From: an uncultured Clostridiaceae bacterium
GTDB taxonomy: Bacteria; Bacillota; Clostridia; Peptostreptococcales; Natronincolaceae
Direction: 5' to 3'
Assembly: GCA_965652145.1 (NCBI GenBank)
Contig: CBFGTV010000051.1
Location: 1-24,963, forward strand
Length of the DNA: 24,963 bases
Of the stretch, positions 1,127-15,409 are shown piece by piece (the stretch's first letter is position 1; each line of letters opens with the position of its first letter). The notes beneath the pieces were generated by a model. The model had not been told where the DNA came from. It did not search any database and saw only the letters and a list, made by a program, of their open reading frames with translations. The position numbers and the translations under genes are program-made.

Positions 1127-1418
1127 CAATTTGATTGATTGCTTTCATTTGTTATTTACTTTAATCTTTCTTGATTTTCTTTTGTAGTTAAAGTTAATGT
1201 TAGGGTGTTTTAATTAAGCCCATAATTAACAATAACTTTATGTGTAGTAACTTTAAAACATGAATTATAAATAGGCCATGATAGTACATTGGTTTTTAAA
1301 GCTTCTTAATTGAATCTCTATCATATAATTTACCATATTTACATTAACTTTACAAAACCCTTAATTAATGTTAAAGTTAAATTGTTAATACTACAATACC
1401 AAAGAAAGGTGCTTAATA

Positions 1419-1841
1419 ATGAAGAACAATATTAAACTAAAAGGATTATTAGTACTCCTTTTACTTACAATTCCTTTTACTTTTTTTAAAGGTGATGCGC
1501 CTGATTCTTCAAAGGATATAGATTTTGAGGTTTCAACGGTTGCTGTGAAGGCTGATACCATAAATAATTCAAGAAGATTATATTTTAACAGCAATGGTCA
1601 ATTAATCACTGACATAAGTGAGCTAAATAGAGCCCTTCAACAAAGCAGCACTAAGCATACAGAATTAACAGCACAGCTCCCTTTCGATGATCAGGCAGCC
1701 AAAGAGGAATTATCTGAGGAAGAACGGATGAAATTAGAGGCCCATATTGAAAAGCTATCTCTTGAAGCCGCAGAATTAGAAAGAAAACTAAAGGAATATG
1801 CAAATAATAATAAACCCTATAATGTTCCAGTAAATGAATAA
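1419..1841 (+). CDS. Hypothetical secreted or N-anchored protein with a C-terminal coiled coil
   Basis: RBS AAAGGTG precedes the ATG. The N-terminus is hydrophobic (LKGLLVLLLLTIPFTFF) and contains no Cys, so it is not a lipoprotein. The C-terminus (EELSEEERMKLEAHIEKLSLEAAELERKLKE) has a heptad, charged character. Confidence 0.45.
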   Translation: MKNNIKLKGLLVLLLLTIPFTFFKGDAPDSSKDIDFEVSTVAVKADTINNSRRLYFNSNGQLITDISELNRALQQSSTKHTELTAQLPFDDQAAKEELSEEERMKLEAHIEKLSLEAAELERKLKEYANNNKPYNVPVNE

Positions 1842-1852
1842 ATCATAAAACA

Positions 1853-1893
1853 AAAGCCCTTTCAAAACAATTGAAAAGGCTTTTTCTTTTTTT
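1853..1893. terminator. Bidirectional rho-independent terminator between the convergent genes ending at 1841 (plus) and 1892 (minus)
   Basis: Hairpin AGCCCTTTCAA / TTGAAAAGGCT (one mismatch) with loop AACAA, followed by TTTTTCTTTTTTT on the plus strand. Read on the minus strand the hairpin is followed by TTTTGTTTT. Confidence 0.6.
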
Positions 1894-3154
1894 AATATTT
1901 CTTCCCCAGCTCCCAGGCCTTGTCAAGCTCGAAAAGACATTGAATTAAATACAGAGCACCCTTAAAGCCCACAAAGGGGGTATAGGGGTAAATGGTATGC
2001 TTTAGCAGATTGGGATTGGCGATTTGCATCGTCAGCCTGCTTTGATGCTTAAATTCCAGTGAGGCCCCGTCGGCCATTAAAAGATACAGAGGGGTTTCCT
2101 TAAGATACTCCTCAATTTCGGCCTCACTCCACTGGCTTACCAAGAAGGGCTGCCATTTTTCAGGAACCTGGTCCTTAATTTCAGCAGATAGCTTGTGCTT
2201 TACAATAATCCTGTTAACCCGAAGCCCCAGCTCCTCCATAAAATCCGCCAGGCCAATTACTGTATCGTAATCCCCTACCAGAGCAACATCTTTAATGTCC
2301 TTTTCTCTAAGCATAAACTGGTAGCTCATCAGGTGCCTTTTAATTCTACTAATCCATTGGTTTAGGTAGCCTTCGTCCACCCGCTTTTTAAAGGCTCCTT
2401 CAATAGCCCTGATCCAAGAAACGGTACCGGCTAACCCATAGGGCCTGCCATGATGATAGGGAATGCCGTGGTTATCCTGCAATTCCTTGGCTGCCTTTAT
2501 TCCCTCTGCCCTCAGGACCAGATTAAATTCTGCCTGGCCGGCGGCTTCGATTTCACTAAGGGTAGTGTAGGCTGTAAAGAGGGTGCTGCAATGGGCCCCA
2601 AAGCCATCCTCCATGATGGCCTTAATTTCTTCTGCATCTGAGAGAAAGTTAAACTGATCCACATTAGTGCCAATCAAGCCATAATGATTTTTTCTTGTCG
2701 GTTGATTTTTAGGAACAAGCTGCTGACAAAGGAGCTTTAGGGTTTTTTCGATGCCCAGGGTATGGTCTCCGTGGTAGCCACCGGTGGTAATCGGAACTAA
2801 CCGTGCCTTTACCCTTGGCTGCATTTCATAGCATACGCTTTCAATGTCGGTACCAATCACTGCCGAGATGGAGGAGGCCATAATGAAAATATATTTAGGG
2901 TGATGATTTTCGTCAATTTCAATTATTGCCTTTTCAAGTCTTTCATGGGTGCCAAAGGAAATGTCGGTCTCGTCGATATGGGTTGTATAGACATTGGCCT
3001 TATGGCTGCCATTTAACTGCATCATTCCCTCCTGGGCAAAATGGGTGGTGCCTGCCGGGCCGAATTCAATAATGAAAATATCTGCTATGGTGCTGAGGGT
3101 CCATAGGGTACCCATTCGATCAGAGGGAATAGGAAAAAATTTATATAGCTCCAT
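1892..3154 (-). CDS. Nitrogenase-like component-1 beta-type subunit (NifK/NifN/BchB family; NflK-like)
   Basis: 420 aa with the overall look of the oxidoreductase/nitrogenase component-1 fold: GxGxxGG-like segments and conserved Cys in ESVCYEM and GAHCSTLF. It is translationally coupled, with its start overlapping the stop of the upstream NifD-like gene by 14 nt. It sits in an operon with NifH-like and NifD-like genes. Confidence 0.65.
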   Translation of the reverse strand: MELYKFFPIPSDRMGTLWTLSTIADIFIIEFGPAGTTHFAQEGMMQLNGSHKANVYTTHIDETDISFGTHERLEKAIIEIDENHHPKYIFIMASSISAVIGTDIESVCYEMQPRVKARLVPITTGGYHGDHTLGIEKTLKLLCQQLVPKNQPTRKNHYGLIGTNVDQFNFLSDAEEIKAIMEDGFGAHCSTLFTAYTTLSEIEAAGQAEFNLVLRAEGIKAAKELQDNHGIPYHHGRPYGLAGTVSWIRAIEGAFKKRVDEGYLNQWISRIKRHLMSYQFMLREKDIKDVALVGDYDTVIGLADFMEELGLRVNRIIVKHKLSAEIKDQVPEKWQPFLVSQWSEAEIEEYLKETPLYLLMADGASLEFKHQSRLTMQIANPNLLKHTIYPYTPFVGFKGALYLIQCLFELDKAWELGKKY

Positions 3155-4466
3155 GTCGCATACCTCCCTTTGAAGCCATGGCCATCATTTTTGCTTTCAT
3201 TTCCTCCTGTTGACCATAGCTTAACATAATCTTTTTAATAGCATAGAGGGGAATTTCAAAGCCCAGCTTTTTGGTTGCATCATCCAGCGTGATCTGTACG
3301 ATGTTTCGTTTTATTAAATTCATTGGGTTTTCATGACCGATATAAAAATCTGGCTTCAGCTGGTCATAGATTGACTGCATGGGGGCAATGTTGGCAATTC
3401 TGCTGATGTAGGGGTTTTGACCCTTTTCCTTGATTTCATCCATATAGATGCCGTCATTCTCATAAAGCTCCCTGACCTGTACTAAAAGGGGGGTCATGTC
3501 CAAATCACACAAAAAGCTGGCTACCTCCAGCGCCATCATGGGGGTGTTGCCATAGATAAAGGTTTTATCCTTTAACATGGCCCTGGCTTCCTCCATCAGG
3601 TTCCTTAATTGTGCCTCTTGCCCTTGGAGCTTATCCAGCAGCTTGATTTCAAGGGCTGATTCCAGCCTGGCATAACAGGCTTTTATCCGGTGGATGGAAA
3701 GATGCCTGTCGAAGTAAATATAATCTATATCAAAATCCCGCTTCATAGCTTTGGCCAAGGGCAGGGCAACAAAATCCGTTACAATATTCAGTTGAGCCCC
3801 TGGAACCTGACTAAGCTCAGCAATGGTACAGCTTGAAGGTACAACGGAATGAATGTCAACCCCTTCTTCCCTTAGCAGCTTAATTAGCTCGGTTTCTTCA
3901 ATGCCATGCTGACGATGGCCTAAAATATTGACGGTTTTAGGCCTTTTTTCCTGGGGCTCCATCAGAGTCACCAGCTTTTCGAGGCACCTTTCCATTCCGG
4001 GTATATGGCTGTTGCATTTAAAATGCTCGGTGGGTACCACCAATAGCTTTGCCGCCACCTCATGGGACATGGCCTGCCCCATGGCTTCAAAATCCTCACC
4101 AATCAGCTCCATCACACAGGTAGTTACAATCATAATTGCTTTGGGCTTGATTTTCTGATCAATTTCAATAATGATTTCCTTAATTTTTTCCTCACAGCCA
4201 AAGGTAATGTCATGCTTACTGGCTACAGCCGAATAAAAATTATCCCTTCCCTTTTGCCTTAGATGGGCAAAGTCCTTGGCATAATAGGTACACTCCTGGG
4301 TGCCCACCACCAAAACCACCAAATCCTCAATAAAGGAAGCAATCATGGCCACCCCAAAGAGGGGGCAATGGGTCCCTGGGAAAATGGCATGGGAAAGGGA
4401 TTGAATGTCTTCATTGGCCTGAATGTCTGCTAAACGTGCCAGGCCCGTCAAATCATATTTTTTCAT
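3141..4466 (-). CDS. Nitrogenase-like component-1 alpha-type subunit (NifD/NifE/BchN family; NflD-like)
   Basis: The track ORF extends to 4523. The start is preferred at M of MKKYDLTGLARL (4466), which is preceded by AGAGGTG and overlaps the ABC ATPase stop by only 14 nt. Cys residues sit in the HCPLFG, GTQECTYY, TFGCEE and TTCVMELIGEDF contexts typical of [4Fe-4S]-ligating NifD/BchN-like subunits. Confidence 0.7.
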   Translation of the reverse strand: MKKYDLTGLARLADIQANEDIQSLSHAIFPGTHCPLFGVAMIASFIEDLVVLVVGTQECTYYAKDFAHLRQKGRDNFYSAVASKHDITFGCEEKIKEIIIEIDQKIKPKAIMIVTTCVMELIGEDFEAMGQAMSHEVAAKLLVVPTEHFKCNSHIPGMERCLEKLVTLMEPQEKRPKTVNILGHRQHGIEETELIKLLREEGVDIHSVVPSSCTIAELSQVPGAQLNIVTDFVALPLAKAMKRDFDIDYIYFDRHLSIHRIKACYARLESALEIKLLDKLQGQEAQLRNLMEEARAMLKDKTFIYGNTPMMALEVASFLCDLDMTPLLVQVRELYENDGIYMDEIKEKGQNPYISRIANIAPMQSIYDQLKPDFYIGHENPMNLIKRNIVQITLDDATKKLGFEIPLYAIKKIMLSYGQQEEMKAKMMAMASKGGMRHGAI

Positions 4467-5268
4467 GTTCGCACCTCTCTTCACAGCCTTTACAAACGCC
4501 AATGGGGTGGATAATAAATTCATCCTTTAATAAATCCCTACGGATACACACCTCAACGTTGTAGACCGATTCAATTAAATCCTCAGTTAATACTTCAACG
4601 GGGCTTCCCTCTGCGATGAGGGCCCCCTCCTTCATGACTACCACCCTGTGGCTGTACTTGGCAGCCTGGCTTAGGTCATGGAGTACCATAATCACCGTCA
4701 GCTTCAGCTCCTTGTTCAGATTCCGCAGAAGCTCCATCACCTCCAGCTGATGACAAATATCCAGGTAGGTGGTGGGCTCATCCAATAACAAAACCTGGGG
4801 CCTTTGAGCCAGGGCCATGGCGATCCATACCCGCTGCCTTTCTCCTCCTGAAAGGGACATTACTCGCTTATCCTCAAAGCCCTGTAGGGAGGTATGGTTG
4901 ATGGCCCAGCGGATAATTTCCTCATCTTCGTGATTTTTAGGTTGAAACCACCTTTTATGGGGCATTCTCCCGTAATAGATCAATTCCTTTACGGTAATAT
5001 CCTCAGGGCTTTTATTGTGCTGAGATAGGGTAGATATTTTACGGGCAATGCTTTTGACATTCATACTACCCATATCTTCCTTATCAAGATACACAAAGCC
5101 GGATTTTTGCTTTAAAAATCGTGAAACTGTTTTCAACAGGGTTGACTTTCCCGAGCCATTGGGGCCGATGATGGAAACCATTTGCCCCGGCTCAACCTTA
5201 AAGGAGAAATCCTGTACAATTACCTTTTCTGAATAGGCAATACACAAATTTTTAGCTTCTATCATCAA
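4453..5268 (-). CDS. ABC transporter ATP-binding protein, FecE/FepC/BtuD class (type II importer)
   Basis: Walker A GPNGSGKST, signature LSGGERQR, Walker B LLLDEPTTYLD and an H-loop (VLHD). The start overlaps the permease stop (ATGA). The C-terminal tail CKGCEERCEH is unusual. Confidence 0.85.
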   Translation of the reverse strand: MMIEAKNLCIAYSEKVIVQDFSFKVEPGQMVSIIGPNGSGKSTLLKTVSRFLKQKSGFVYLDKEDMGSMNVKSIARKISTLSQHNKSPEDITVKELIYYGRMPHKRWFQPKNHEDEEIIRWAINHTSLQGFEDKRVMSLSGGERQRVWIAMALAQRPQVLLLDEPTTYLDICHQLEVMELLRNLNKELKLTVIMVLHDLSQAAKYSHRVVVMKEGALIAEGSPVEVLTEDLIESVYNVEVCIRRDLLKDEFIIHPIGVCKGCEERCEHEKI

Positions 5269-6254
5269 GCATGCCCCCTTCTTAAAAGATACAGGAAAAA
5301 GGGCCCCCCAATGACCGCCATAATCACCCCAACCGGAAGCTCAATGGGATTCATAACGGTTCTGGCAAAGGTGTCCCCCAATAGCAGCAGGCTGCTGCCC
5401 AATATCACGCTAAAGGGAAGCAGGTGCTTGTAATCTGACCCAATTAACAGCCTGGCAATATGGGGAACAATTAAACCAACAAAGCCGATTACCCCCACCA
5501 GGGCGGTTGAAATGGCTGCAATAAATACAGCAACCAGAGAAATCAGCACCCTGTACCGGTTAATGTCTACCCCAAGGTTGCTGGACATTTCGTCTCCCAG
5601 CTGCAAAATATTGGCCTTTCTAATACATAGCATGGCCAATGTTAGCCCAATGAGGCTATAAATGGCCAAAACCCGTACATCATACCAGGTTTTTCCCGTT
5701 ACGCTGCCATTGACCCACAGTAAAACACCTTGAATTTTATCACTATGCAAAATGGATAACAGGGAGGTTCCTCCCCCTAAAATGGCATTGACCGCCACCC
5801 CCGCCAGGATAATCCTTACGGGCTTGATGCCGTCCTTCCAGGCCAGGCTATAGACCAGCCCACAGGCTATGGCCCCACCTATGAAGGACACTAGGGGAAC
5901 CAGGTAGCTGTATTGGGGTAAAAGCAGCATGATAATAATGGCCATCAGGCTTGCCCCGGAAGAAACCCCGGTTAAACCGGGGTCAGCCAAAGGGTTCTGC
6001 ATAACAGCCTGAAGCAAGGCCCCTGCCACAGCCAAATTGGCACCCACCATCATGGCAATAAAAATTCTGGGCAGCCTGATATTCATGATGATATTTCTGT
6101 CAGCAGACATTTCACTGCTGAAAATAGCACTAAATATACGGTCATAGCTGTATTCTACACTGCCCATTCTGATTGAAAAGAAGGCAATCAGTATAAGCAG
6201 CAGAAAAGAAACGGCAATGGTAAGGGGCTTTTTCCCCTTCTTCAGCTCTATCAT
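5265..6254 (-). CDS. ABC transporter permease, FecCD/BtuC family
   Basis: 329-aa polytopic protein. It carries the FecCD signature region GVIGFVGLIVPHIARLLIG...LGDTFART and a G-rich transmembrane helix (GGPFFLYLL). Confidence 0.85.
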   Translation of the reverse strand: MIELKKGKKPLTIAVSFLLLILIAFFSIRMGSVEYSYDRIFSAIFSSEMSADRNIIMNIRLPRIFIAMMVGANLAVAGALLQAVMQNPLADPGLTGVSSGASLMAIIIMLLLPQYSYLVPLVSFIGGAIACGLVYSLAWKDGIKPVRIILAGVAVNAILGGGTSLLSILHSDKIQGVLLWVNGSVTGKTWYDVRVLAIYSLIGLTLAMLCIRKANILQLGDEMSSNLGVDINRYRVLISLVAVFIAAISTALVGVIGFVGLIVPHIARLLIGSDYKHLLPFSVILGSSLLLLGDTFARTVMNPIELPVGVIMAVIGGPFFLYLLRRGHA

Positions 6255-6266
6255 TTCTTTAGTCTC

Positions 6267-7169
6267 CTACTGATATAGTATTTCTGCCATTTTTTCCAGG
6301 GCCTCAATAGCTCTGATATTGGCCGTTACCCCAAAGTATTCCGGATCTAAATCGTAAACACGATGATTTTTAACCGCCTCCAGGTTCACCCAGAAGCCCT
6401 TTTCAAATTCCTTTTCAAAGGCAGCCTTGCTGACCTCGGGGGAAGCATGGGTTAACCTTAATATCATATCGGGGTTTAGGTCTGCAATGGTTTCAAGGCT
6501 AAAGGGCAGATAGGGCATGGGTCTATTTTCTCCTAATGAATCGGTTACATTGATGCCGCCCAGCATTTCTACCAGCCCCCCCGCATAGGAGTGCTTTGTC
6601 GCCAGCATAAAGCTTTCAGGGGTACCAAAGATCACCAGTACCCTTGGGGCCTCTTTCCCCTCAATTGAATTTAATACCTGCTGCTCCCTTTCCTTCATTT
6701 CATCCAATACTGCCTTAGCCTTTTCTTCCTTACCAAAATACTGACCTAGGCTTTCAATATTTTCTAAAATGTTCTGATAGGAGTTGTTGGAAAGAAACAT
6801 GGTTTCGATATTCTGTCCTTCAAAAAGGGCTTCGATGCTTTCCTTCAGACTTGCATCGGTAATATACAGCTCCGGGTTTAGGGAAACCACCTTTTCTAAA
6901 TCAGGGTTCATGGGCATACCAATTTCTGTGATACCATTAAATCTTTCGGGCAATGCCTTTTCGGTTGACACTACCCCCACCACATCCACATCAATCAAAT
7001 CTAAAATCTCTGCCGCTGCAACGGTGCCTGCAATAACCCTTAATTCCTGTTGCTGGGCCTCCGCCTGGGGCCCTTGGGGTACTGCTGTTCCTGGCTCGGT
7101 GTTGGTGGTTTTGCCACAGCCTGTCATCAGTACCGCTGCCAGCAAGCCCATTAGTATAATTTTTTTCAT
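6267..7169 (-). CDS. Substrate-binding lipoprotein, cluster A/class III (FecB/BtuF/HmuT-like) of the ABC importer
   Basis: Signal peptide with lipobox (LMTGC), followed by a T/P/Q-rich linker. The size (300 aa) fits, and it sits next to the FecCD/FecE components. Its start overlaps the NifH-like gene's stop (ATGA). Confidence 0.7.
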
Positions 7170-7921
7170 TCCTCTGATCCCTCCATTATTTTTTTAGCCA
7201 GCTGGAAATAGATTTGGCTCATTTCGCTGTCAGGGAAGGCTTCTATCACTGTTTTACCTGCATTTTCTGCCTCCTGCACCAGGCTGTTTCTAGGGATATA
7301 ATGATAGATGCTGGTGTCAATTTCCTGACATAGCTTTTCTACCAGCTCCTGTTCGTTCTCAACATTTTTTGCATTCAAAATTAATCCCTCAAGCCGTGCG
7401 TAACCCCGGGCCTTAAACTGCCTGACTGCGTTGGAAATATTGGATGCTGCATACATCGACATCATTTCACCCGAGGTAACAATATAGACTTCCTTGGCAT
7501 ACTGGTTCCTAATGGGCATGGCAAAGCCGCCGCAAACCACGTCTCCTAAAACATCATAAACGACAATGTCTGGTTGGTAGGTTTCAAAGGCATTCAGTTC
7601 CTCCAGCTTTTCAAAGGCGGTAATAATCCCCCGGCCTGCACAGCCAATCCCGGGGGTAGGGCCTCCGGCCTCTACACACAATACACCATTGTAGCCTGCA
7701 AATACCATATCCTTTAGATCAACATCATCATTTTTTTCCTTTAAAACATCTAATACAGTGGGAATAAAGGCACCCCGCATCAAATTCTTCGTTGAATCAG
7801 CCTTGGGGTCGCAGCCTATTTGCATCACCCTGTAGCCTAAATGACTTAGGGCGGCCGACAGATTTGAAACGGTGGTGGATTTTCCTATTCCCCCTTTACC
7901 GTATATGGCTATTTTCTTCAT
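7166..7921 (-). CDS. NifH/BchL-family nitrogenase-iron-protein-like ATPase (NflH-like)
   Basis: Walker A KGGIGKST, switch I CDPKADST, and the two [4Fe-4S]-ligand contexts [17 protein letters not shown] and [14 protein letters not shown] that are diagnostic of NifH/BchL/ChlL. 251 aa. Confidence 0.88.
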
Positions 7922-8442
7922 GACTGCTTCACCTCAGAAAGCTGGCTTAATATTTCCCTGATGAAATTTCTGGCTGCCTCAAAATCTTCTTCATTGGGAT
8001 GCTTTGCTGCCTCCTGATGCCTTTTTAATCTTTCCTCCGTCATTTGGTGGGGCCCGCTGGCACCGGCTTTTTTAAACATTTCTGTTATTTTAGGATTAAT
8101 TTTTCCCTGGCAGAGAAAATTTCCCAACAGGATATTATCCTTCTCAAGGATTTCAGTAACATTTTTCAGGGTGGCCTGGGCATGCTCTGAATCCGGGTAG
8201 GCACCCAGAGTGCCAAAGGTGGCTACATGTTTATTTTTTAATCCTTCCATAAAGGCCAGCATTTCTTTATTAGGCTTGGCCCGGTCTACCCAGTAGCCCA
8301 AAACTAAAAAATCTGCATCTATTTCTTGACTTACTTCCTTCAAATCATATATTTTAGTTGTATCGGGCATGGCCTTTAATATTTCGTAGGCAATCTTTTT
8401 CGTATTGCCCGTGGCAGAAGAAAACACTATGGCTTTTTTCAT
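7918..8442 (-). CDS. Flavodoxin (probable electron donor to the NifH-like protein)
   Basis: [20 protein letters not shown] is the flavodoxin FMN phosphate-binding loop (T/SxTGNT). The stop overlaps the NifH-like start. The start is preferred at ATG 8442 (GGAG with a 9-nt spacer) rather than the track's 8451. Confidence 0.75.
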
Positions 8443-8626
8443 TTGAAACATCTCCTTAAATGATAATTTCTATCAAATACTTCACCCATACATCTTATCC
8501 TATTCATTCTACAAACTTTTTTAATATATTTCGATTTTTTATAATTTATTTTTCAGTTTCTTTTTTTTAGAAAATAGCGTATGATATTATTAGATAAGAA
8601 TAATTATCATTATTGGAGTGTTGATC

Positions 8627-9370
8627 ATGATTACGGATATTTGTTTCCCCAAGCCAAATATCAATGAGATTTATGAGCATTATGAGCTTGAACTCTCCTT
8701 GATTGATAAGGTCGTAAACGGTGAGGTAAAGGAGGCCCTGGGGCTATTTGATGAGTTATTTGATAACAGGCATTTATATGCACTGGATGAAAGGTGTGCT
8801 TTTCGTTCTCAAAAAAACCATTTGATTTCACTGTCGGCTCTACTATGTCATAATGTTATTAAGAAGGGTGTACCGCCCTACACTGCAAAGGCAAAAAACC
8901 AATCCTTTGTTAAGCTCATAGAAAATGCTGGTACCATGGCGACCCTTATGAATTTAGGTAGAATATTAATAAGGGGCTATTGTACACAGGTGACCTCAAG
9001 ATTAACCCGGGCCAGCGATGCCCACATCATTAAAGCCATCAATTATATACATAATAATCTGGGGGAAGACCTGACCCTTGAACGGGTTGCAGAACATGTC
9101 AACCTGAGTCGCTGCTATTTTTGTACGCAATTTAAAAAGGAAACCCGGCTTTCCTTTTCAAATTATTTGGCCCACGCCCGAATTGAAAAAAGTAAGTTTT
9201 TACTTACTCATTCTGATAAATCTATATTAGACATTGCTATTTTACTGGGCTTTAACAGTCAAAACTATTTTACAACCCAGTTTAAGAAGTTTACCGGTAT
9301 GACTCCGAAAAAGTTTAGAATAGCGGGTTCGGCACAAAAAAAAGACCAGGCCCCGGGGCAATTACCCTAG
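8627..9370 (+). CDS. AraC/XylS-family transcriptional regulator, divergent from the nitrogenase-like operon
   Basis: The C-terminus has two HTH_AraC motifs (RVAEHVNLSRCYFCTQFKKETRLSFSNYLAHARIEKSKFLL...ILDIAILLGFNSQNYFTTQFKKFTGMTPKKFR). The start is preferred at ATG 8627 after GGAG; the track begins at GTG 8618. Confidence 0.8.
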   Translation: MITDICFPKPNINEIYEHYELELSLIDKVVNGEVKEALGLFDELFDNRHLYALDERCAFRSQKNHLISLSALLCHNVIKKGVPPYTAKAKNQSFVKLIENAGTMATLMNLGRILIRGYCTQVTSRLTRASDAHIIKAINYIHNNLGEDLTLERVAEHVNLSRCYFCTQFKKETRLSFSNYLAHARIEKSKFLLTHSDKSILDIAILLGFNSQNYFTTQFKKFTGMTPKKFRIAGSAQKKDQAPGQLP

Positions 9371-9403
9371 GGTCTGGTGCTTTATATGAGGGTTTTTATC
9401 TAA

Positions 9404-9874
9404 TTAGCTTAAATAGGCTCTAAACATCCAAAGTGTCTTTTCAAGATTTTCCAAAGCACCTACAAATAGGTCAACAGACACTTGATCGTTGTGTTCATCG
9501 GCTACATTTAAAGCGCCTCTTAATTCACCAATTAATTGTTGGAAATCCTCTTTCAGGGCACTTATAACCGCCTCCCCTGCGATGGCTTCACTTTGAGCTT
9601 CTTTAAGGGTGGCCAATTCTAAATAGTCCTTCATGGTTGCCGCTGGTCTAAAGCCAAGGGTTAAGATTCTTTCTGCAACAGCATCTAATTCCTCGGCTGT
9701 ATGATCATACAGCTCCTCTAGCTTTGAATGTAGTTGGAAGAAACTCTTGCCCTCTACATTCCAATGGTAATTGTGCAGCTTGGTGTATAGTACATGCAGG
9801 TTAGCTAAATACTGATTTAATACCTTTGATACTTCTTCTCTTCCCTTTGCCTCTAATCCAATTTGTACGTTCAT
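9404..9874 (-). CDS. dps: Dps (DNA-binding ferritin-like protein)
   Basis: Ferritin-like Dps signature LHVLYTKLHNYHWNVEGKSFFQLHSKLEELYDH...DEHND. 156 aa. RBS GGAGGAATTACA precedes the ATG. Confidence 0.85.
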   Translation of the reverse strand: MNVQIGLEAKGREEVSKVLNQYLANLHVLYTKLHNYHWNVEGKSFFQLHSKLEELYDHTAEELDAVAERILTLGFRPAATMKDYLELATLKEAQSEAIAGEAVISALKEDFQQLIGELRGALNVADEHNDQVSVDLFVGALENLEKTLWMFRAYLS

Positions 9875-9889
9875 AATTGTAATTCCTCC

Positions 9890-10321
9890 TTAATTTTTTT
9901 GATTTTTATTTGACAGGCATTCATGACAAATGCCTTTATAATAAACACTTTTTTCACTGATTTTAAAATCCCTTAAAGCTTCAATCTCCTCTGAAATCAT
10001 TGAGACCTTAAAGTCATAGATTTTTCCACACTCATTGCACTTAAAATGCCCGTGGCTGCCAATATCGGCATCATACCTGGCCTCATTTTCTTCAATGGTT
10101 ATGACTCTTGCAACATTGGCCTCAATAAAAAGCTTCAGGGTGTTATATACTGTGGTTTTTGATAGAGTTGGAATTTCCTTCACCAAGGCCCGGTATATTT
10201 CCTCTGCCGTTGGGTGGGAATCCTTTTCAACCAAGTATTCCAGTATTTTAATTCGAGCATAGGATGGCTTGATATGATTCTTTTGTAAATATTCACTTAT
10301 ATTTTCGATTGAAACCCTCAT
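9890..10321 (-). CDS. perR: Fur-family metalloregulator, probably PerR (co-oriented with dps)
   Basis: Winged-helix N-terminal region (KPSYARIKILEYLVEKDSHPTAEEIYRAL...TVYNTLKLF), HxH metal site (SHGHFKC) and two CxxC pairs (CNECG...CHEC). 143 aa. Confidence 0.75.
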   Translation of the reverse strand: MRVSIENISEYLQKNHIKPSYARIKILEYLVEKDSHPTAEEIYRALVKEIPTLSKTTVYNTLKLFIEANVARVITIEENEARYDADIGSHGHFKCNECGKIYDFKVSMISEEIEALRDFKISEKSVYYKGICHECLSNKNQKN

Positions 10322-10346
10322 GCCATCAGCTCCTATGACAATAATT

Positions 10347-10399
10347 TTTGTAATTGATTCAAATTTGTAATTGATTTAAATTTGCAATCATTACAATTT
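10347..10399. promoter_or_regulatory. Three tandem 17-bp operator-like repeats upstream of the perR-like gene (candidate Fur/PerR boxes)
   Basis: TTTGTAATTGATTCAAA (10347-10363), TTTGTAATTGATTTAAA (10364-10380) and TTTGCAATCATTACAAT (10381-10397). The third unit is the inverted version of the first two, so the array contains TTGTAATNATT / AATNATTACAA dyads typical of Fur-family boxes. Confidence 0.55.
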
Positions 10400-10502
10400 A
10401 TATCTGTTTTATATATACCTTTGCATTTGAACCTTAAACATATTATTTGAAATTTTTTTGTTTTTATTTGATTTATTTAAATTAATGAGATTTCTTAACT
10501 AT

Positions 10503-10548
10503 AAAAAAGCCCCTCTCTTTTAGTATCAGACTTTAAAAGAGAGGAGCA
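10503..10548 (-). terminator. Rho-independent terminator of the CAT-family gene
   Basis: On the minus strand: GCTCCTCTCTTTTAAAGTCTGATACTAAAAGAGAGGGGC followed by TTTTTT. The stem is CCTCTCTTTT / AAAAGAGAGG. Confidence 0.7.
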
Positions 10549-10555
10549 ATATCTA

Positions 10556-11194
10556 TTAGTATAAATACTTTTCTGGTTCATTTAACAAACACTGTAATGT
10601 TTCAAAATACTGTCCTACATGGGCACCATCTGCCAGAGCATGATGGGCCTGAAGGGAAAAGGGAAGCTTGATTATTCCGTTTTCTTCAAAATATTTTCCC
10701 CAGGTAATTCGAGGTACGCTATCGGTTGGCTTCATATGAATGGGGTGAGTAACACTGGTAAAGGACACCCATGGCAAGCTGGTGATATAAAGTACATCAT
10801 CTTCCAAGGGTCGGTCTTCAATATTAATACATCCCTTCGCTGCTTCTATGGCATTTGCAGTATTTTCTTTAAATACCGCAAATGCCTCAGTATATCTTGA
10901 GGAACAAAAGCTAAAGACACCATGGTCAGTCATCATAGTAAAGGCCGGATGAACCCGTTCATGCTCAATTACCGTTTTTTCTTTAATTCTATAGCGCAGC
11001 ACCTCTACAGAATTGGCGGCCTTTGTGGCAACATAGAGCAATGAGATGAAAAAAGGCCTTTTTTCGGTTTTTATATATTGAAGAAACCTGCTTATGTCTA
11101 CATTGGTACAAACATTGAAATGCGGGTAATCTAGCTGGCTGAAATATTCAAAATGCTGCTTTCTGTTCCACTTGTTTATATCGATAATTCTCAT
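10556..11194 (-). CDS. Chloramphenicol-acetyltransferase-family protein (type A CAT-like)
   Basis: 212 aa. KWNRKQHFEYF matches the CAT N-terminus (SWNRKEYFDHY in CatP-like proteins). The catalytic-histidine motif AHHALADGAH matches HHAVCDGFH, and the length is right. It is monocistronic with its own terminator. Confidence 0.75.
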   Translation of the reverse strand: MRIIDINKWNRKQHFEYFSQLDYPHFNVCTNVDISRFLQYIKTEKRPFFISLLYVATKAANSVEVLRYRIKEKTVIEHERVHPAFTMMTDHGVFSFCSSRYTEAFAVFKENTANAIEAAKGCINIEDRPLEDDVLYITSLPWVSFTSVTHPIHMKPTDSVPRITWGKYFEENGIIKLPFSLQAHHALADGAHVGQYFETLQCLLNEPEKYLY

Positions 11195-11402
11195 TGGTAT
11201 CCCCCTGATGATCTAGATTTTTACAATTCCTATTATATCAGAAGGGGAAAGGGAAACTCAATTCTATCAAGTATTTATTTCATTATCTCTTATACAGAGA
11301 ATTGCCTTGTTCTTTAATGGTTTTCCTTATAAACCATTGAAGTTTAACTTTATTGGTTAGATCCCCGAAGCTTATTTTGTTATTTATCAACTGCCATGCC
11401 CA

Positions 11403-12548
11403 CTACCATTCTGCAATGGTACCATCATAGTTCTTCCATTTGGGGTTGGTCCACACCAGGCCCTCTAACGCTATCTTTTCTACAAATTCTTCATCGATGT
11501 CAATACCCAGGCCTGGCTTTGTAGGAATCTTGACATAACCATCCTTGTATTGAAAAATCTCTTTATTCTTGATGAAGTCTAAAAGATCAAAGCCCTTGTT
11601 GTAGTGTATGCCCAGGCTTTGCTCCTGAATAAATACATTGGGAGTACATACATCCATCTGCAGGGTTGCTGCCAAGGCAATAGGTCCGTAGGGAGCATGG
11701 GGGGCTACTGCCACATCGAAGGCCTCAGCCATGGCGGCTATTTTTCGCCCTTCTAATATTCCTCCTGTCAAGGCCAGATCAGGCTGAATGATATCGATTA
11801 CGCCATCCTTTAAAATATTTTTAAATTCCCATCGAGTATAGAGCCTTTCTCCTGTTGCTAGAGGAGTGGATGTATACTTGGCCACCTCCCGGAAGGCTTC
11901 TTCATTTTCTGGTAGCACCACCTCTTCCAGGAACATTAGCTTATAGGGCTCCAGCTCCTTGGCCAATACCTTGGCCATGGCCTTATGTACCCTTCCATGG
12001 AAATCTACCCCTATATTTAAATCATAGCCTACAGCCTCTCTAATAGATGCTACTCGCTCAACAACGGCCTGTATTTTTTTAAAGGAATCGATATAATGCA
12101 GCTCCTCTGTGGCATTCATTTTAATTGCCTGAAAGCCCCTGTTTTTTCTGTCTAAGGCCTCCTTTACCACCTCAGCGGGTCGGTCTCCGCCAATCCATGA
12201 ATAGACCATGATTCGATCCCGGGCAGCCCCTCCTAAAAATTCGTAAACAGGTATATTGTAGAATTTCCCCTTAATATCCCATAGGGCCATTTCAATTCCT
12301 GAAAGGACTGTCATGTGAATGGGGCCGCCCCTAAAGAAGGAACGATACAGCTCCTGCCATAAGCGCTCTATCTCAAAGGGATTTCTTCCAATCAAGGTAT
12401 TGCCCATTTCGTAGGCCCCGGCCACAACGGTTTCTGTCTTGGTTCCTGAGATCATCTCGCCCCATCCGTCTATACCTTCATCTGTACTAATTTTAATAAA
12501 AATCCACCTAGGCTTGATTTTATATACCTTTATTCCTGTAATCTTCAT
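11403..12548 (-). CDS. Enolase-superfamily acid-sugar dehydratase, D-galactonate dehydratase (DgoD)-like
   Basis: The N-terminus MKITGIKVYKIKPRWIFIKISTDEGIDGWGE closely matches DgoD. Metal and catalytic motifs are present: GVDFHGR, FLEEVV, ATGERL, IIQPD, PHAPYGPIALAA. 381 aa. Confidence 0.85.
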   Translation of the reverse strand: MKITGIKVYKIKPRWIFIKISTDEGIDGWGEMISGTKTETVVAGAYEMGNTLIGRNPFEIERLWQELYRSFFRGGPIHMTVLSGIEMALWDIKGKFYNIPVYEFLGGAARDRIMVYSWIGGDRPAEVVKEALDRKNRGFQAIKMNATEELHYIDSFKKIQAVVERVASIREAVGYDLNIGVDFHGRVHKAMAKVLAKELEPYKLMFLEEVVLPENEEAFREVAKYTSTPLATGERLYTRWEFKNILKDGVIDIIQPDLALTGGILEGRKIAAMAEAFDVAVAPHAPYGPIALAATLQMDVCTPNVFIQEQSLGIHYNKGFDLLDFIKNKEIFQYKDGYVKIPTKPGLGIDIDEEFVEKIALEGLVWTNPKWKNYDGTIAEW

Positions 12549-12561
12549 TTCTATCGTCCCC

Positions 12562-13917
12562 CTATTCTGCTGAAATTACTGCTGCCTGCTTTTTCTTCCT
12601 CTTGCCCTCGATATATACCCATACCCCTATAAAGGCAAGGAAAAAGACCGGTACGGTGATAATTAAATTACCTGTAAATACTTTATACACGATGAAGCTT
12701 AAGGTTAAGCTGGTGGCTGCAAAGGATGAAATCATTGCTCCTGCTGCCATAGATAAATCAATTCCCGATGCCTTGGCCAAATCAGTCAATACCGGTGCTG
12801 TATTGGTTCCTGCCAAAAGAATAGCACCTGTACAAACCAAGCCAATTATAATATTTTTTAGAAGGTTTCCTTGGGTTAGAGCCACCACCATAGCCACCCG
12901 GAAGGGCACCACCGCCAGGTCAGCAAAGGGGAGCACGCGATTTCCCGGAAGAATAACAGCCAACGCTATGGTGAGGGGAATCACAATCAGGGATGTGGTA
13001 ATCACATCGGGGTTCCCCACCACAACGGCTGCATCTAAACCGATCAGAAACTTTCTTCCCTTAAACTTATCCTTGGTAAATTTCTTTGCAGCTTCTGATA
13101 TAGGCATCAAGCCCTCCATAAAAAGGGAGGTCATTTTGGGGATTAGTACCATTACCGCCGCCATATTAACTGCCACATTCAAAATCTTAGTAATATCATA
13201 TTTTGCCAGGGCTCCTATAACACCGCCCAGCAGCATTCCTGTAATCATGGGTTCACCAAAGAAGCCCAGATATTTTTTGGCATCCTTCACTGTAAAATTC
13301 ACTTTATTTATTCCAGGTATTTTATCCAGCAGCATATTCAAAGGTGCTGCAATGACCATAGAAGAAAGGGCAGAGACCGTTGGAAGGGAGACCCCGGGAA
13401 GTCCGAAGAAATCGCTGACAAGGTCCTCTGTCCAGTCTGACATTTTAAAGGTGACAATGGCCATGGTCAGGGTGGCTGCGATGCCTAGGGGAACACTTTT
13501 AGTGACATAATAAGTCATGATTCCTACAATGGCCATATGGTGATAATTCCAAATATCTACATCAAGGGTATTGGTTTTCTTTAATATCAGCATGACGATG
13601 TTTGTAGCCAGAATACCAAAGATTAAAATTGGAATAATGGGTGACGACCAGGTTACTGCCGCAATGGCCCCCCATCCCACATCTAAAATATCCAGCTTAA
13701 TACCGAAATTCTCTACCATTCCCTGGGCAGCAGGGCCGAGGTTTGAGGAGAGTAGGTTAATAACCAACCGAATTCCGGCAAAGCCAATCCCCACTGTCAT
13801 ACCAGATCGAAAGGCTCTTGCAGGCTTTACTCTAAAAATAAGTCCGATGGCAAAGATAATGATTGGAAGCATAACCGTTGGTCCGGCATTGAGTAAAATG
13901 TTAAACGCATTATACAT
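12562..13917 (-). CDS. PTS EIIC component, galactitol (Gat) family
   Basis: 451 aa and polytopic. The N-terminus LNAGPTVMLPIIIFAIGLIFRVKPARAFRSGMTVGIGFAGIRLV...GPAAQGMVENFGIKLDILDVGW parallels GatC. FLIGLD...GNRVLPFADLA is also GatC-like. Confidence 0.85.
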   Translation of the reverse strand: MYNAFNILLNAGPTVMLPIIIFAIGLIFRVKPARAFRSGMTVGIGFAGIRLVINLLSSNLGPAAQGMVENFGIKLDILDVGWGAIAAVTWSSPIIPILIFGILATNIVMLILKKTNTLDVDIWNYHHMAIVGIMTYYVTKSVPLGIAATLTMAIVTFKMSDWTEDLVSDFFGLPGVSLPTVSALSSMVIAAPLNMLLDKIPGINKVNFTVKDAKKYLGFFGEPMITGMLLGGVIGALAKYDITKILNVAVNMAAVMVLIPKMTSLFMEGLMPISEAAKKFTKDKFKGRKFLIGLDAAVVVGNPDVITTSLIVIPLTIALAVILPGNRVLPFADLAVVPFRVAMVVALTQGNLLKNIIIGLVCTGAILLAGTNTAPVLTDLAKASGIDLSMAAGAMISSFAATSLTLSFIVYKVFTGNLIITVPVFFLAFIGVWVYIEGKRKKKQAAVISAE

Positions 13918-13950
13918 TTATAACCCTCCCATAATAAATTAATTGTTCAT

Positions 13951-14232
13951 TTATTTTAAATGTCCTATAATTTCTTCCAAAACAGACTCTTCCTCAAAGC
14001 CCGTTAAAAGGGCAATGGCGCCTACCACCGGGATACTAACCTCAGAACCTTCAAATTTCCCAGTGGTAACAAGCAGATCAAAATCTGCCACCTTAGAGGG
14101 AACTTCCATCAGCTTACATTGAGTAACCGACACATTGATACCGTTATCTTCACAGGCTTCTTTTATTTTACTGGCCACTACTGTTGAGGTTGCAATACCA
14201 TTTCCACACGCAACTAGTACTCTTTTCATCAT
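13951..14232 (-). CDS. PTS EIIB component, galactitol family
   Basis: 93 aa. The active-site Cys loop VACGNGIATS is typical of GatB-type EIIB. Confidence 0.8.
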   Translation of the reverse strand: MMKRVLVACGNGIATSTVVASKIKEACEDNGINVSVTQCKLMEVPSKVADFDLLVTTGKFEGSEVSIPVVGAIALLTGFEEESVLEEIIGHLK

Positions 14233-14263
14233 TTACGCCTCCTAGAATTTAGTTTCCGCTACG

Positions 14264-14731
14264 TTATAGCAAATAAGGTTTTAGCTTTTCCATTACTTCT
14301 TCGCTGCTTGCTGCTTTACAAATCCCTTTTAAAACTTCTTGATCCTTAACAAGGTTAATAATTTTTTGTAGCATATTTAAATGCCCATGGGGCTGATCCA
14401 GGGCCAGCATCATAATAATATGGACTTCCAGCTCCCGTTCTGGATCATCCATTGAACGAAAAATGACCGGCTCCTTAAGAATGCCTATGGCAATGGCTGC
14501 CCTGTTAACCAGCTTATAATCACAGTGGGGTATGGCAATTTTGATATCTACCGACGGAAGCCCGGTGGGATAGTTCATTTCCCTTTCTACAATAGCTTCT
14601 TGATAAGACTCCTTTACATACCCCCCTTGATAAAGCTTGTCAGATAAAAATCTTAAGGCTTCAAGATTTTCACTAAAGGTTAAGTCTCTAAAAATTAAAT
14701 CCTTTTCAAAATACAATTCTGTGCCCATCAT
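14264..14731 (-). CDS. PTS EIIA component (EIIA-2, Mtl/Fru/Gat type)
   Basis: 155 aa. The phosphorylatable-His context KIAIPHCDYK and the LEVHIIMMLALD region are typical of EIIA-2. Confidence 0.75.
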   Translation of the reverse strand: MMGTELYFEKDLIFRDLTFSENLEALRFLSDKLYQGGYVKESYQEAIVEREMNYPTGLPSVDIKIAIPHCDYKLVNRAAIAIGILKEPVIFRSMDDPERELEVHIIMMLALDQPHGHLNMLQKIINLVKDQEVLKGICKAASSEEVMEKLKPYLL

Positions 14732-14740
14732 TTTTGCCTC

Positions 14741-15358
14741 CTAGCCTATTTCTGCTTCAAATGCTTTGAGAGACCCCCTTAACCCCTTCAGGTTCCCATT
14801 GATTATGTCCTCTCTATTGAAGATTCCCGAACCAATTCCCAGGTAATCTGCCCCAAGATTTAAAAATTCTTTTGCATTGTTCTTTGTGATTCCTCCCACA
14901 GCCATGAGGGGAATGTTACCAAGGGGTGCCTTCACATCCTTAAAAAACCTAGCACCGCAGCTAATCGCCGGAAATACCTTTACAATGTCTGCCCCTGCCT
15001 CCAAGCCTTGGTATATTTCTGTGGGAGTCATGGCCCCTGATACAGAAATTACTGAATTGGCCTTGCACAGATTTATTACCGCCTTGGGCAGCACAATGGG
15101 AGATAAAATAAATCTAGCTCCTGCCTGAATAGCCGCCTCTGCCTGCTGCAGGGTATTGACTGTGCCTGCCCCAATTAAGATTTGGTCTTTAAATTCTCTT
15201 TGAAAGGTTTCAATCATTTCCAGGGCCCCGGGGGTATTCATGGTGATTTCTACTGCTTTAATGGTACTTTCTGTCAAAATCTCTATTACATTTCTAATCT
15301 GCCTTTTTTCGTATCCACGCAAAATAATAGTGATCTTAGGAAAGGCTGCTGCATTCAT
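14741..15358 (-). CDS. 2-keto-3-deoxy-6-phosphogluconate / 6-phosphogalactonate aldolase family (Eda/DgoA-like)
   Basis: 205 aa. The Schiff-base lysine context GADIVKVFPA is present, together with ITMNTPGALE and the G-rich C-terminus GGITKNNAKEFLNLGADYLGIGSGIF typical of KDPG/KHG aldolases. Confidence 0.85.
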   Translation of the reverse strand: MNAAAFPKITIILRGYEKRQIRNVIEILTESTIKAVEITMNTPGALEMIETFQREFKDQILIGAGTVNTLQQAEAAIQAGARFILSPIVLPKAVINLCKANSVISVSGAMTPTEIYQGLEAGADIVKVFPAISCGARFFKDVKAPLGNIPLMAVGGITKNNAKEFLNLGADYLGIGSGIFNREDIINGNLKGLRGSLKAFEAEIG

Positions 15359-15392
15359 CTACTCACCTCCTTAATCTCACTATTATCCTTGA

Positions 15393-15407
15393 GCAAATAT
15401 TGTGCCA
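15393..15407 (-). promoter_or_regulatory. Sigma-54 (-24/-12) promoter for the aldolase-PTS-dehydratase operon
   Basis: The minus strand reads TGGCACAATATTTGC, i.e. TGGCAC-N5-TTGC(T). That is a perfect match to the RpoN consensus. It lies 35 nt upstream of the aldolase ATG, with GGAGGTGAG as RBS, and sits directly after a sigma-54 activator gene. Confidence 0.65.
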
Positions 15408-15409
15408 GA

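Follow-up and report, generated by a model that had tools for sequence, protein, structure and literature searches.

The nitrogenase-like enzymes known to act on tetrapyrroles, namely, dark-operative protochlorophyllide oxidoreductase (DPOR), chlorophyllide oxidoreductase (COR), and CfbCD, all reduce the ring (PMC13474568). CfbCD also provides a precedent within the superfamily for the six-electron reduction of a metallated tetrapyrrole. A further set of nitrogenase-like genes was described by Dos Santos et al. in 2012 (PMC3464626), who reported NifEN-like genes lying 3' of genes for NifH and an ABC ATPase in C. botulinum (CLM_0808/0809) and A. oremlandii (Clos_0313/0314). By their account, the E-like protein has three cysteines and the N-like protein has none; the function guessed at was metal transport for cofactor assembly. 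Here, we analyze an operon of seven minus-strand genes in a 24,963-nucleotide stretch of DNA from an uncultured Clostridiaceae bacterium (contig CBFGTV010000051.1; the whole stretch is referred to as the window). The genes encode, in order, a flavodoxin, a NifH-like protein (H), a lipoprotein binding protein, a FecCD permease, an ABC ATPase, a NifD-like protein (D), and a NifK-like protein (K). Analysis of the sequences of this operon and its relatives established its gene content, a conserved synteny, heme-type ligands, an enrichment of Fur boxes, and the loss of the cofactor ligands of nitrogenase. We propose that the operon probably serves iron-starvation-induced, oxygen-independent acquisition of heme iron, in which the nitrogenase-like enzyme would reduce the heme macrocycle and free the iron. 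The role in anaerobic heme-iron acquisition is a well-supported prediction.

The loci of Dos Santos et al., which we matched by description, almost certainly belong to the same family as the operon. Because that paper described the family, the arrangement as such is not new; heme, Fur control, and heme-binding accessory proteins, however, were not identified there. An earlier note on this DNA, made from its sequence alone, had called the substrate and function of the arrangement not established; the arrangement itself is already contained in the 2012 paper. No paper that ties heme uptake or heme degradation to a nitrogenase-like enzyme was found in the full-text literature searched, with subscription-only papers outside the search. 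A heme function for this enzyme family is new in that no earlier description of one was found. A July 2026 survey in Chemical Reviews lists functions only for Groups IV-A, IV-B, IV-C, IV-F, and V; assigning functions to uncharacterized clades is counted there among the greatest challenges of the field, with gene context of little help. The word nitrogenase is absent from a November 2025 review of heme in bacterial pathogenesis.

Like DPOR and COR, the enzyme of the operon combines a NifH-like ATPase with a heteromeric core in which the N/D-type subunit carries three cluster cysteines and its partner carries none at the corresponding positions. It also resembles them in having no iron-molybdenum cofactor (FeMo-cofactor), no NifB, and a tetrapyrrole as its likely substrate. 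Unlike DPOR and COR, to which its family is very distant in sequence, it has an invariant Thr at the position of BchB Asp36. Furthermore, the operon context is one of nutrient uptake under predicted Fur control rather than pigment synthesis, and the presumed substrate is an external iron porphyrin. The comparison with CfbCD is similar: the NifH-like protein scored best against the CfbC model (362 bits), but CfbD is a single type of subunit, whereas the operon has distinct D and K proteins, and the operon is bacterial and linked to an importer, whereas CfbCD is methanogenic.

The operon can also be compared with known heme uptake systems. It resembles Fusobacterium hmuTRUVWF, E. coli chuW/chuY, and Vibrio hutWXZ in joining a heme ABC importer to an FldH/HmuF flavodoxin or a HutZ-type protein and to one oxygen-independent enzyme within a single operon for iron acquisition. 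In those systems, however, the catalyst is a ring-opening class C radical-SAM methyltransferase and the product is anaerobilin, whereas in the operon the catalyst would be a nitrogenase-like ATP-dependent reductase and a reduced closed ring is expected. With the Isd and Hup systems for heme uptake in Firmicutes (IsdE-IsdF, NEAT proteins, sortase B, and IsdG/I oxygenases), it shares an IsdE-type lipoprotein with the Met/His pair and a FecCD permease and, in some loci, an NEAT-LPXTG protein and a class B sortase. The Isd and Hup systems have an oxygen-dependent heme oxygenase of the IsdG/I type where the operon has the nitrogenase-like enzyme, and the hosts of the operon are strict anaerobes.

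In order to examine the conservation of the operon, one genome per species was scanned, which yielded 50 loci onto which the window proteins were mapped. The order H-binding protein-permease-ATPase-D-K was found in nearly all 50 loci, over D identities from 71% down to 37%, and clustering of all open reading frames (ORFs) in the loci confirmed the same core gene set. This synteny bears out the association of the importer with the nif-like genes on which the earlier note had relied, and it rules out the importer being a recent, unrelated insertion. The clostridial hosts include Tissierella, C. argentinense, C. perfringens, Sarcina, Paeniclostridium, Paraclostridium, Romboutsia, Terrisporobacter, and Turicibacter; further hosts are diderm Bacillota and rumen and oral Bacteroidota. 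Alkaliphilus crotonatoxidans has a protein identical (100%) to the D-like protein of the window. The D-like family is large, since a search of 1.84 billion representative proteins returned 118 clusters at E < 1e-30 and 346 at E < 1e-10. No gene for an HmuW/ChuW-like enzyme or any other recurrent enzyme was found in the 50 loci, and the nitrogenase-like enzyme is therefore the only candidate catalyst.

The ligand of the importer was assessed from its binding protein, which has a lipobox (LMTGC). Against the curated IsdE model TIGR03659 it scored 303.3 bits, above the cut-off of 298.65, whereas the next family reached 73 bits. Its best matches in the PDB were Listeria Lmo2184 (E = 1.8e-54) and S. 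aureus IsdE (E = 2.5e-48). Met87 and His241 of the window protein align with the IsdE motifs GQPMEPN and LRLPHG, in which we take the IsdE heme ligands Met78 and His229 to lie. IsdE was also the top family for the binding proteins of all 33 relatives compared, with the His ligand kept in 32 and the Met ligand in 24 of the 33. The importer ATPase had FecE (286 bits) and a heme ABC ATPase (238 bits) as its best NCBIfam models, both below cut-off. Some loci add a gene for an NEAT-LPXTG protein and one for a class B sortase that scored above its cut-off, and loci in diderm Bacillota carry genes for a TonB-dependent receptor, TonB itself, ExbB/ExbD, and a secreted protein resembling CbiX. A corrinoid, a siderophore, or a Ni/Co chelate was rejected as the substrate of this branch, as the BtuF, FhuD, FecB, and enterobactin models scored 35 to 73 bits versus 303 for IsdE.

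The operon and its relatives have two accessory genes that are mostly alternative to each other, with the flavodoxin present in 16 loci and a 153-amino-acid protein encoded directly 3' of K in 17. The 153-amino-acid protein hit the HugZ model at E = 4e-39 and the HutZ model at E = 1e-33, below cut-off, and it matched the PDB structures of ChuZ, HugZ, and HutZ. A His is found near the C terminus of all 17 copies, which is also where the heme ligand of HugZ and HutZ lies. The flavodoxin had a single PDB match, 8G64 (E = 2.5e-22; residues 3 to 165), which is the heme-bound FldH of Fusobacterium nucleatum, a paralogue of HmuF with His134 as its heme ligand (PMC10404700). The alignment is ungapped through the helical cap and places His135 of the window protein on His134; His135 was conserved in 16/16 flavodoxins of the family. 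FldH and HmuF bind FMN together with heme under this cap, His134 ligating the iron, and act as heme carriers to the radical-SAM enzyme HmuW and then as hydride donors to its product, anaerobilin; a semiquinone is not stabilized. The flavodoxin of the operon had earlier been cast as a low-potential electron donor to the Fe protein. That assignment is not upheld, as the protein belongs to the FldH/HmuF type of heme carrier and hydride donor without a stabilized semiquinone.

Four independent lines, comprising the binding protein, the flavodoxin, the HutZ/HugZ-like protein, and the neighboring uptake genes, indicate that the imported substrate is almost certainly heme. The earlier expectation of an imported chelate or macrocycle was borne out in this respect, and the generic class of siderophores, corrinoids, and Ni chelates that it had allowed is narrowed to heme by the IsdE, FldH, and HugZ-type evidence.

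Inspection of the nitrogenase-like proteins showed that H retains its P-loop, switch I, switch II, C94, and C130, all of which are invariant in 43/43 family members, as the earlier note had read from the window copy for both Cys ligands and the switch regions. Besides its score against CfbC (cut-off, 402 bits), H scored 358 bits against NifH (cut-off, 394) and 221 bits against BchL (cut-off, 345). D and K fell below every curated NCBIfam cut-off for NifD/K/E/N, Vnf/Anf, BchN/B/Y/Z, and CfbD. The scores were 71 bits against NifD (cut-off, 654), 27 to 48 bits against NifK (cut-off, 427), 90 to 109 bits against NifE (cut-off, 505), 67 to 71 bits against BchN (cut-offs, 324 to 420), 100 bits against BchB (cut-off, 490), and 34 and 50 bits against CfbD (cut-off, 268).

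Ligand positions were compared by alignment with reference NifD, NifE, BchN, and BchY sequences taken from annotated plasmids. C34, C59, and C117 of D align with NifD C62, C88, and C154 and with the Cys triad of BchN. D has no equivalent of NifD Cys275, the aligned positions reading NIVTDF, and no counterpart of His442, its C-terminal segment being without His. It carries an extra invariant motif, EHFKCNSHIPG. K has no ligand cysteines, the positions of NifK C70, C95, and C153 being occupied by D12, T36, and S95. T36, at the BchB Asp36 position, sits in an invariant GPAGTTH motif; D12 is nearly invariant and H38 is invariant, and either could replace Asp36 as a cluster ligand. These D and K features hold across 42 family members. 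No NifB homologue was found in the window, nor within 10 kb at the 50 related loci, and neither nifEN nor nifV was found in the window. Since D keeps three cysteines, K has no ligand cysteines, and no NifB was found, each D/K pair most likely holds a single [4Fe-4S] cluster with one non-Cys ligand, which is the solution predicted from comparison with DPOR, rather than a P-cluster together with a cofactor. Taken together, the sub-cut-off scores, the missing Cys and His ligands of the FeMo-cofactor, and a K protein without P-cluster cysteines agree with the earlier reading of D/K as nitrogenase-like but not a nitrogenase. The sizes then estimated (about 440 and 420 amino acids) were close to the 441 and 420 amino acids found, and the reported absence of nifB, nifEN, and nifV alongside the operon also stood. 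The traits of the sulfur-compound reductases MAR and ISR (Groups IV-C and IV-F) were likewise missing: K cysteines, a Cys275 equivalent, NifB, and sulfur genes were not found in the loci.

The operon encodes together a NifH-family ATPase with its Cys pair and PF00148 subunits, the features by which the NFL superfamily is recognized. D and K are both remote from all solved structures, the best E values being 2e-16 and 8e-28, to a NifEN fusion. The AlphaFold model of D (pLDDT, 88) has a generic component-1 fold, with NifK, NifN, NifD, NifE, and BchB as about equally close structural neighbors (TM, 0.6 to 0.75; 14 to 18% identity). Family profiles were closest to NifE (126 and 130 bits), with 18 bits against BchN and 26 to 66 bits against BchB. 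In a neighbor-joining tree, the D-like proteins and 32 of 34 distant representatives formed a clade of their own apart from all references (bootstrap, 88), and the K-like proteins were monophyletic (bootstrap, 100). The references in this tree were NifD/K/E/N, BchN/B/Y/Z, and one Treponema NFL protein. Public databases list many D-like proteins of this family as oxalate:formate antiporter or as NifE, neither of which is correct for a soluble protein of PF00148 that has no NifE features.

Regulation was examined with a scan for the Bacillus-type Fur box TGATAATNATTATCA, allowing up to two mismatches. Two matches were found in the window, both of them in the 166-nt intergenic region between the flavodoxin and AraC genes (chance expectation for the whole window, 0.38), and the position of site 1 is kept in close relatives. 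Of 45 loci, 28 have a match in the interval from -300 to +20 around the operon's first gene. The density of matches was 4.4 per kb in operon promoters, 34-fold above that of 349 intergenic regions elsewhere in the same loci, which had 0.13 per kb. The earlier note had overlooked these boxes. They are putative sites through which Fur likely regulates the operon in addition to AraC. The AraC gene, already described at the operon as a divergent regulator gene, has homologues directly upstream and divergent in 29 loci, and its product is probably specific to the operon. Just past the AraC gene (9404-10321, minus strand) lie genes for a Dps-like ferritin and a Fur-family protein, the latter closest to clostridial PerR at 116 bits, below cut-off. 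We considered this pair as a part of the system and rejected it, as it is not found beside the operon in the other 50 loci.

Loci with other layouts were also found. Three from metagenome-assembled genomes of diderm Bacillota (L034, L040, and L049) have TonB and TonB-dependent receptor genes before the binding protein gene and genes for a secreted CbiX-like chelatase homologue and ExbB/ExbD after K, with no NifH-like gene within 10 kb. On the plasmid pTS1 of Treponema saccharophilum (L053, 7599-15255), H-D-K is followed by the genes for a binding protein, permease, and ATPase. The NifH of this locus is 67% identical to that of the window, a second binding protein gene is divergent upstream, a PNPOx-family gene is nearby, and the binding proteins match no specific family. 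A sister clade, with a D protein 29% identical to that of the window, is represented by L057 (JGI metagenome 3300011851, 1197-10515). Its order is AraC, two binding proteins, two FecCD permeases, ATPase, NifH, D, and K, and its binding proteins are of the siderophore type (Fe-dicitrate, FhuD, or enterobactin-like) and not the IsdE type, which suggests that the wider clade serves iron-chelate uptake in general. In L058 (ENA ERZ21831108, 733-13573), a D-like relative of 26% identity has ABC exporter genes, Mg-chelatase-like AAA/VWA genes, a radical-SAM gene, and a NifH in split form as its neighbors, making this a tetrapyrrole-flavored nitrogenase-like context.

We infer that D/K would act on heme, reducing its ring and not its iron, and that the purpose would be the release of iron. 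Reduction of the heme ring by H/D/K is proposed because the operon follows an hmuTRUVWF-like logic, because this is the sole recurrent enzyme, and because its characterized tetrapyrrole-acting relatives are all ring reductases. In the proposed mechanism, the IsdE-type lipoprotein, the FecCD permease, and the ATPase would carry heme into the cytoplasm, where the flavodoxin would bind it through the conserved His under the helical cap; in related operons, the HutZ/HugZ-like protein would take this part. The enzyme would consist of a NifH-like ATPase dimer and a D/K core with one [4Fe-4S] cluster held by the three D cysteines and a non-Cys ligand from K, and would fill the place that the radical-SAM enzymes HmuW and ChuW have in the Fusobacterium and E. 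coli heme operons. With ATP hydrolysis, electrons of low potential would be forced into the aromatic macrocycle, which is how DPOR, COR, and CfbCD treat their own tetrapyrroles. The reduced, nonaromatic ring would hold iron loosely, and Fe2+ would be freed. Delivery of heme, and perhaps some processing of the product, would fall to the flavodoxin or the HutZ-like protein, and the flavodoxin may reduce the product further. Fur would repress the operon when iron is plentiful, with AraC probably adding a local signal.

Several observations weigh against this proposal. The IsdE equivalog cut-off was reached by only 2 of the 33 binding proteins, and in the most distant branch (L038, L044, and L060) the IsdE score was only 81 to 106 bits. 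Six binding proteins (L021, L022, L024, L029, L030, and L032) have Phe in place of the Met ligand; with the His kept, this implies what would be a different heme coordination in that branch, which comprises C. perfringens and Sarcina. No Fur-box match was found in 17 of the 45 loci, and 3 loci have no NifH-like gene nearby. FldH and HmuF cycle between the oxidized and hydroquinone states, so that the flavodoxin is not assigned as the one-electron donor to the NifH-like protein. We know of no citable enzymatic precedent in which ring reduction leads to the loss of iron. Lastly, the sister clade with siderophore-type binding proteins fits reduction of the metal center equally well.

Reduction at the metal is the main rival. 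In this case, D/K would be a general iron-chelate reductase that reduces the metal center at very low potential, whereupon the iron dissociates, and heme would be one of several substrates of the clade. Such a role is favored by L057, which couples siderophore-type importer genes to H-D-K, although this is a single example of a siderophore-linked locus. Fur control fits any iron-release role. Ferric heme, however, is easily reduced without ATP, and ferrous heme keeps its iron. The use of ATP makes more sense for the ring, which is also what the known tetrapyrrole-acting relatives all reduce. We consider reduction at the metal unlikely.

It is less likely again that the operon remodels or salvages heme, with the imported heme being converted to a modified tetrapyrrole that is retained, for example, by vinyl reduction or as an iron chlorin. 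COR also reduces an 8-vinyl group, CfbCD builds a cofactor, and FldH/HmuF-type and HutZ-like proteins could chaperone a product. The Fur-box enrichment, however, indicates iron supply, no gene for a downstream user or an apoprotein recurs in the loci, and the NEAT/sortase and TonB-receptor neighbors are typical of iron piracy. We regard as very improbable a role in detoxification, whereby excess heme would be taken up and reductively inactivated and AraC would sense heme. The systems known to detoxify heme usually export it, whereas a binding-protein-dependent importer is found here, and Fur boxes imply induction under iron scarcity. The conserved AraC regulator and the removal of a reactive tetrapyrrole by FldH/HmuF in Fusobacterium would be consistent with detoxification, as would the PerR-like and Dps genes that adjoin the operon in this genome, but that pair is not conserved in other loci.

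Marginally more doubtful still is the 2012 idea for the C. botulinum and A. oremlandii homologues (PMC3464626), in which D/K would be a NifEN-like scaffold that assembles a metal cluster from imported metal. The family profiles do score best against NifE, but K is without ligand cysteines, D lacks the Cys275 counterpart present in NifE, neither NifB nor a recipient enzyme was found in any locus, and the importer is of the heme type and not the metal-ion type. Each of salvage, detoxification, and scaffolding is in poorer agreement than heme-iron acquisition by ring reduction with the Fur control, the type of importer, or the ligands that are missing. Ordinary nitrogen fixation, for which only family names from annotation pipelines speak, has a negligible probability given the far-sub-cut-off scores, the missing FeMo-cofactor ligands and P-cluster cysteines, and a window without nifB, nifEN, or nifV, and a true nitrogenase is ruled out by the ligand analysis and the hidden Markov model scores.

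Extending the ring-reduction proposal to the family as a whole, we tentatively suggest, at somewhat short of an even chance, that a large and widespread clade of the nitrogenase superfamily might consist of catabolic, ATP-driven, very-low-potential reductases that free iron from imported chelates. The heme branch would dearomatize heme, possibly to a porphyrinogen-like product. This would be a third oxygen-independent heme-iron route, using neither a radical-SAM enzyme nor a CobN-type dechelatase, in Clostridia that include pathogens and gut commensals.

The features of the operon and its boundaries are listed in the table below. All seven minus-strand ORFs that the earlier note had placed at 1892-8451 are present there. 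The junctions were read from the sequence. Those between the flavodoxin and H and between H and the binding protein are ATGA overlaps, and the binding protein and permease genes are separated by a 12-nt spacer with GGAG. The permease/ATPase junction is TGATG, or TTGA with a TTG start, and is not strictly ATGA. If D starts at the Met at 4466, which has a good ribosome-binding site (AGAGAGGTG) and gives the 441-amino-acid product, the ATPase/D junction is a 14-nt overlap, as is the D/K junction. A terminator had been claimed at 1853-1893, and a strong one was found with nearly the same extent; from the A-run before it and the T-run after it, it is predicted to end the operon and to be usable from both sides. 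The GC content of the operon is 0.456, compared with 0.38 to 0.42 for the other coding parts of the window and 0.283 for the flank at 1-1891. The GC drop previously taken as a sign of horizontal acquisition lends that idea weak support, as the outlier is the low-GC flank and not the operon. The parts of the window that stand out in composition are two stretches of very low GC, 1-1891 (0.28) and 23715-24963 (0.26), both coding for small proteins predicted to be secreted or to lie in the membrane.

Table. Features of the operon and its flanks, with positions in the 24,963-nt window
Feature	Position	Strand	Basis or remark
Intrinsic terminator	1852-1884	-	14-pair stem, 5-nt loop, T-rich tail; A-run before, T-run after
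NifK/NifN-like subunit, 420 amino acids	1892-3154	-	PF00148, 276 bits
NifD/NifE-like subunit, 441 amino acids	3141-4466	-	PF00148, 209 bits; ORF open up to 4523
ABC importer ATPase (FecE/heme/corrinoid class)	4453-5265 (ORF 4453-5268)	-	PF00005, ABC_tran
FecCD-family type II ABC importer permease	5265-6254	-	PF01032, 331 bits
Predicted IsdE-type heme-binding lipoprotein	6267-7169	-	Peripla_BP_2; TIGR03659 IsdE, 303.3 bits
NifH-like Fe protein, Fer4_NifH; predicted ATP-dependent electron donor to D/K	7166-7921	-	PF00142, 335 bits
FldH/HmuF-type flavodoxin with helical cap, FMN and heme binding predicted	7918-8451	-	PF12641, Flavodoxin_3
Fur-box-like site 1	8461-8475		TGATAATNATTATCA, 2 mismatches; 24 nt 5' of flavodoxin start codon
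Promoter-like hexamer pair TCGAAA-17-TAGAAT	8506-8534	-	Consensus scan, 9/12 matches; weak
Fur-box-like site 2	8595-8609		2 mismatches; adjoins AraC start, overlaps palindromic promoter-like element
AraC-family regulator, divergent	8618-9370	+	HTH_AraC/HTH_18

The rest of the window encodes other functions. On the minus strand at 10556-18358, a gene of the chloramphenicol acetyltransferase family is followed by a sugar-acid module comprising an enolase-superfamily dehydratase, a galactitol-type phosphotransferase system (PTS) IIC component, a PTS IIA component, and a KDPG aldolase. At the head of this module is a 982-amino-acid sigma-54 activator with PRD and PTS regulatory domains. At 20150-23714, a minus-strand gene for an RtcB RNA ligase is transcribed away from two plus-strand ORFs (411 and 323 amino acids) that overlap each other and have no Pfam match.

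The extraction of heme iron by strictly anaerobic Firmicutes is poorly explained, as the Isd-type heme oxygenases need oxygen. The gene context of the nitrogenase-like enzyme is unusually informative and uniform in this regard: across about 50 species, the enzyme is accompanied by a heme importer, by accessory proteins of heme-binding types, and by Fur boxes. Several of the carriers can be cultured, and some, such as C. perfringens, are believed to be genetically tractable. If the proposed function is correct, this would be a new type of reaction for the nitrogenase superfamily and a new anaerobic heme pathway with relevance to infection and to the ecology of iron in the gut, and it may be a source of heme-derived porphyrins from gut anaerobes.

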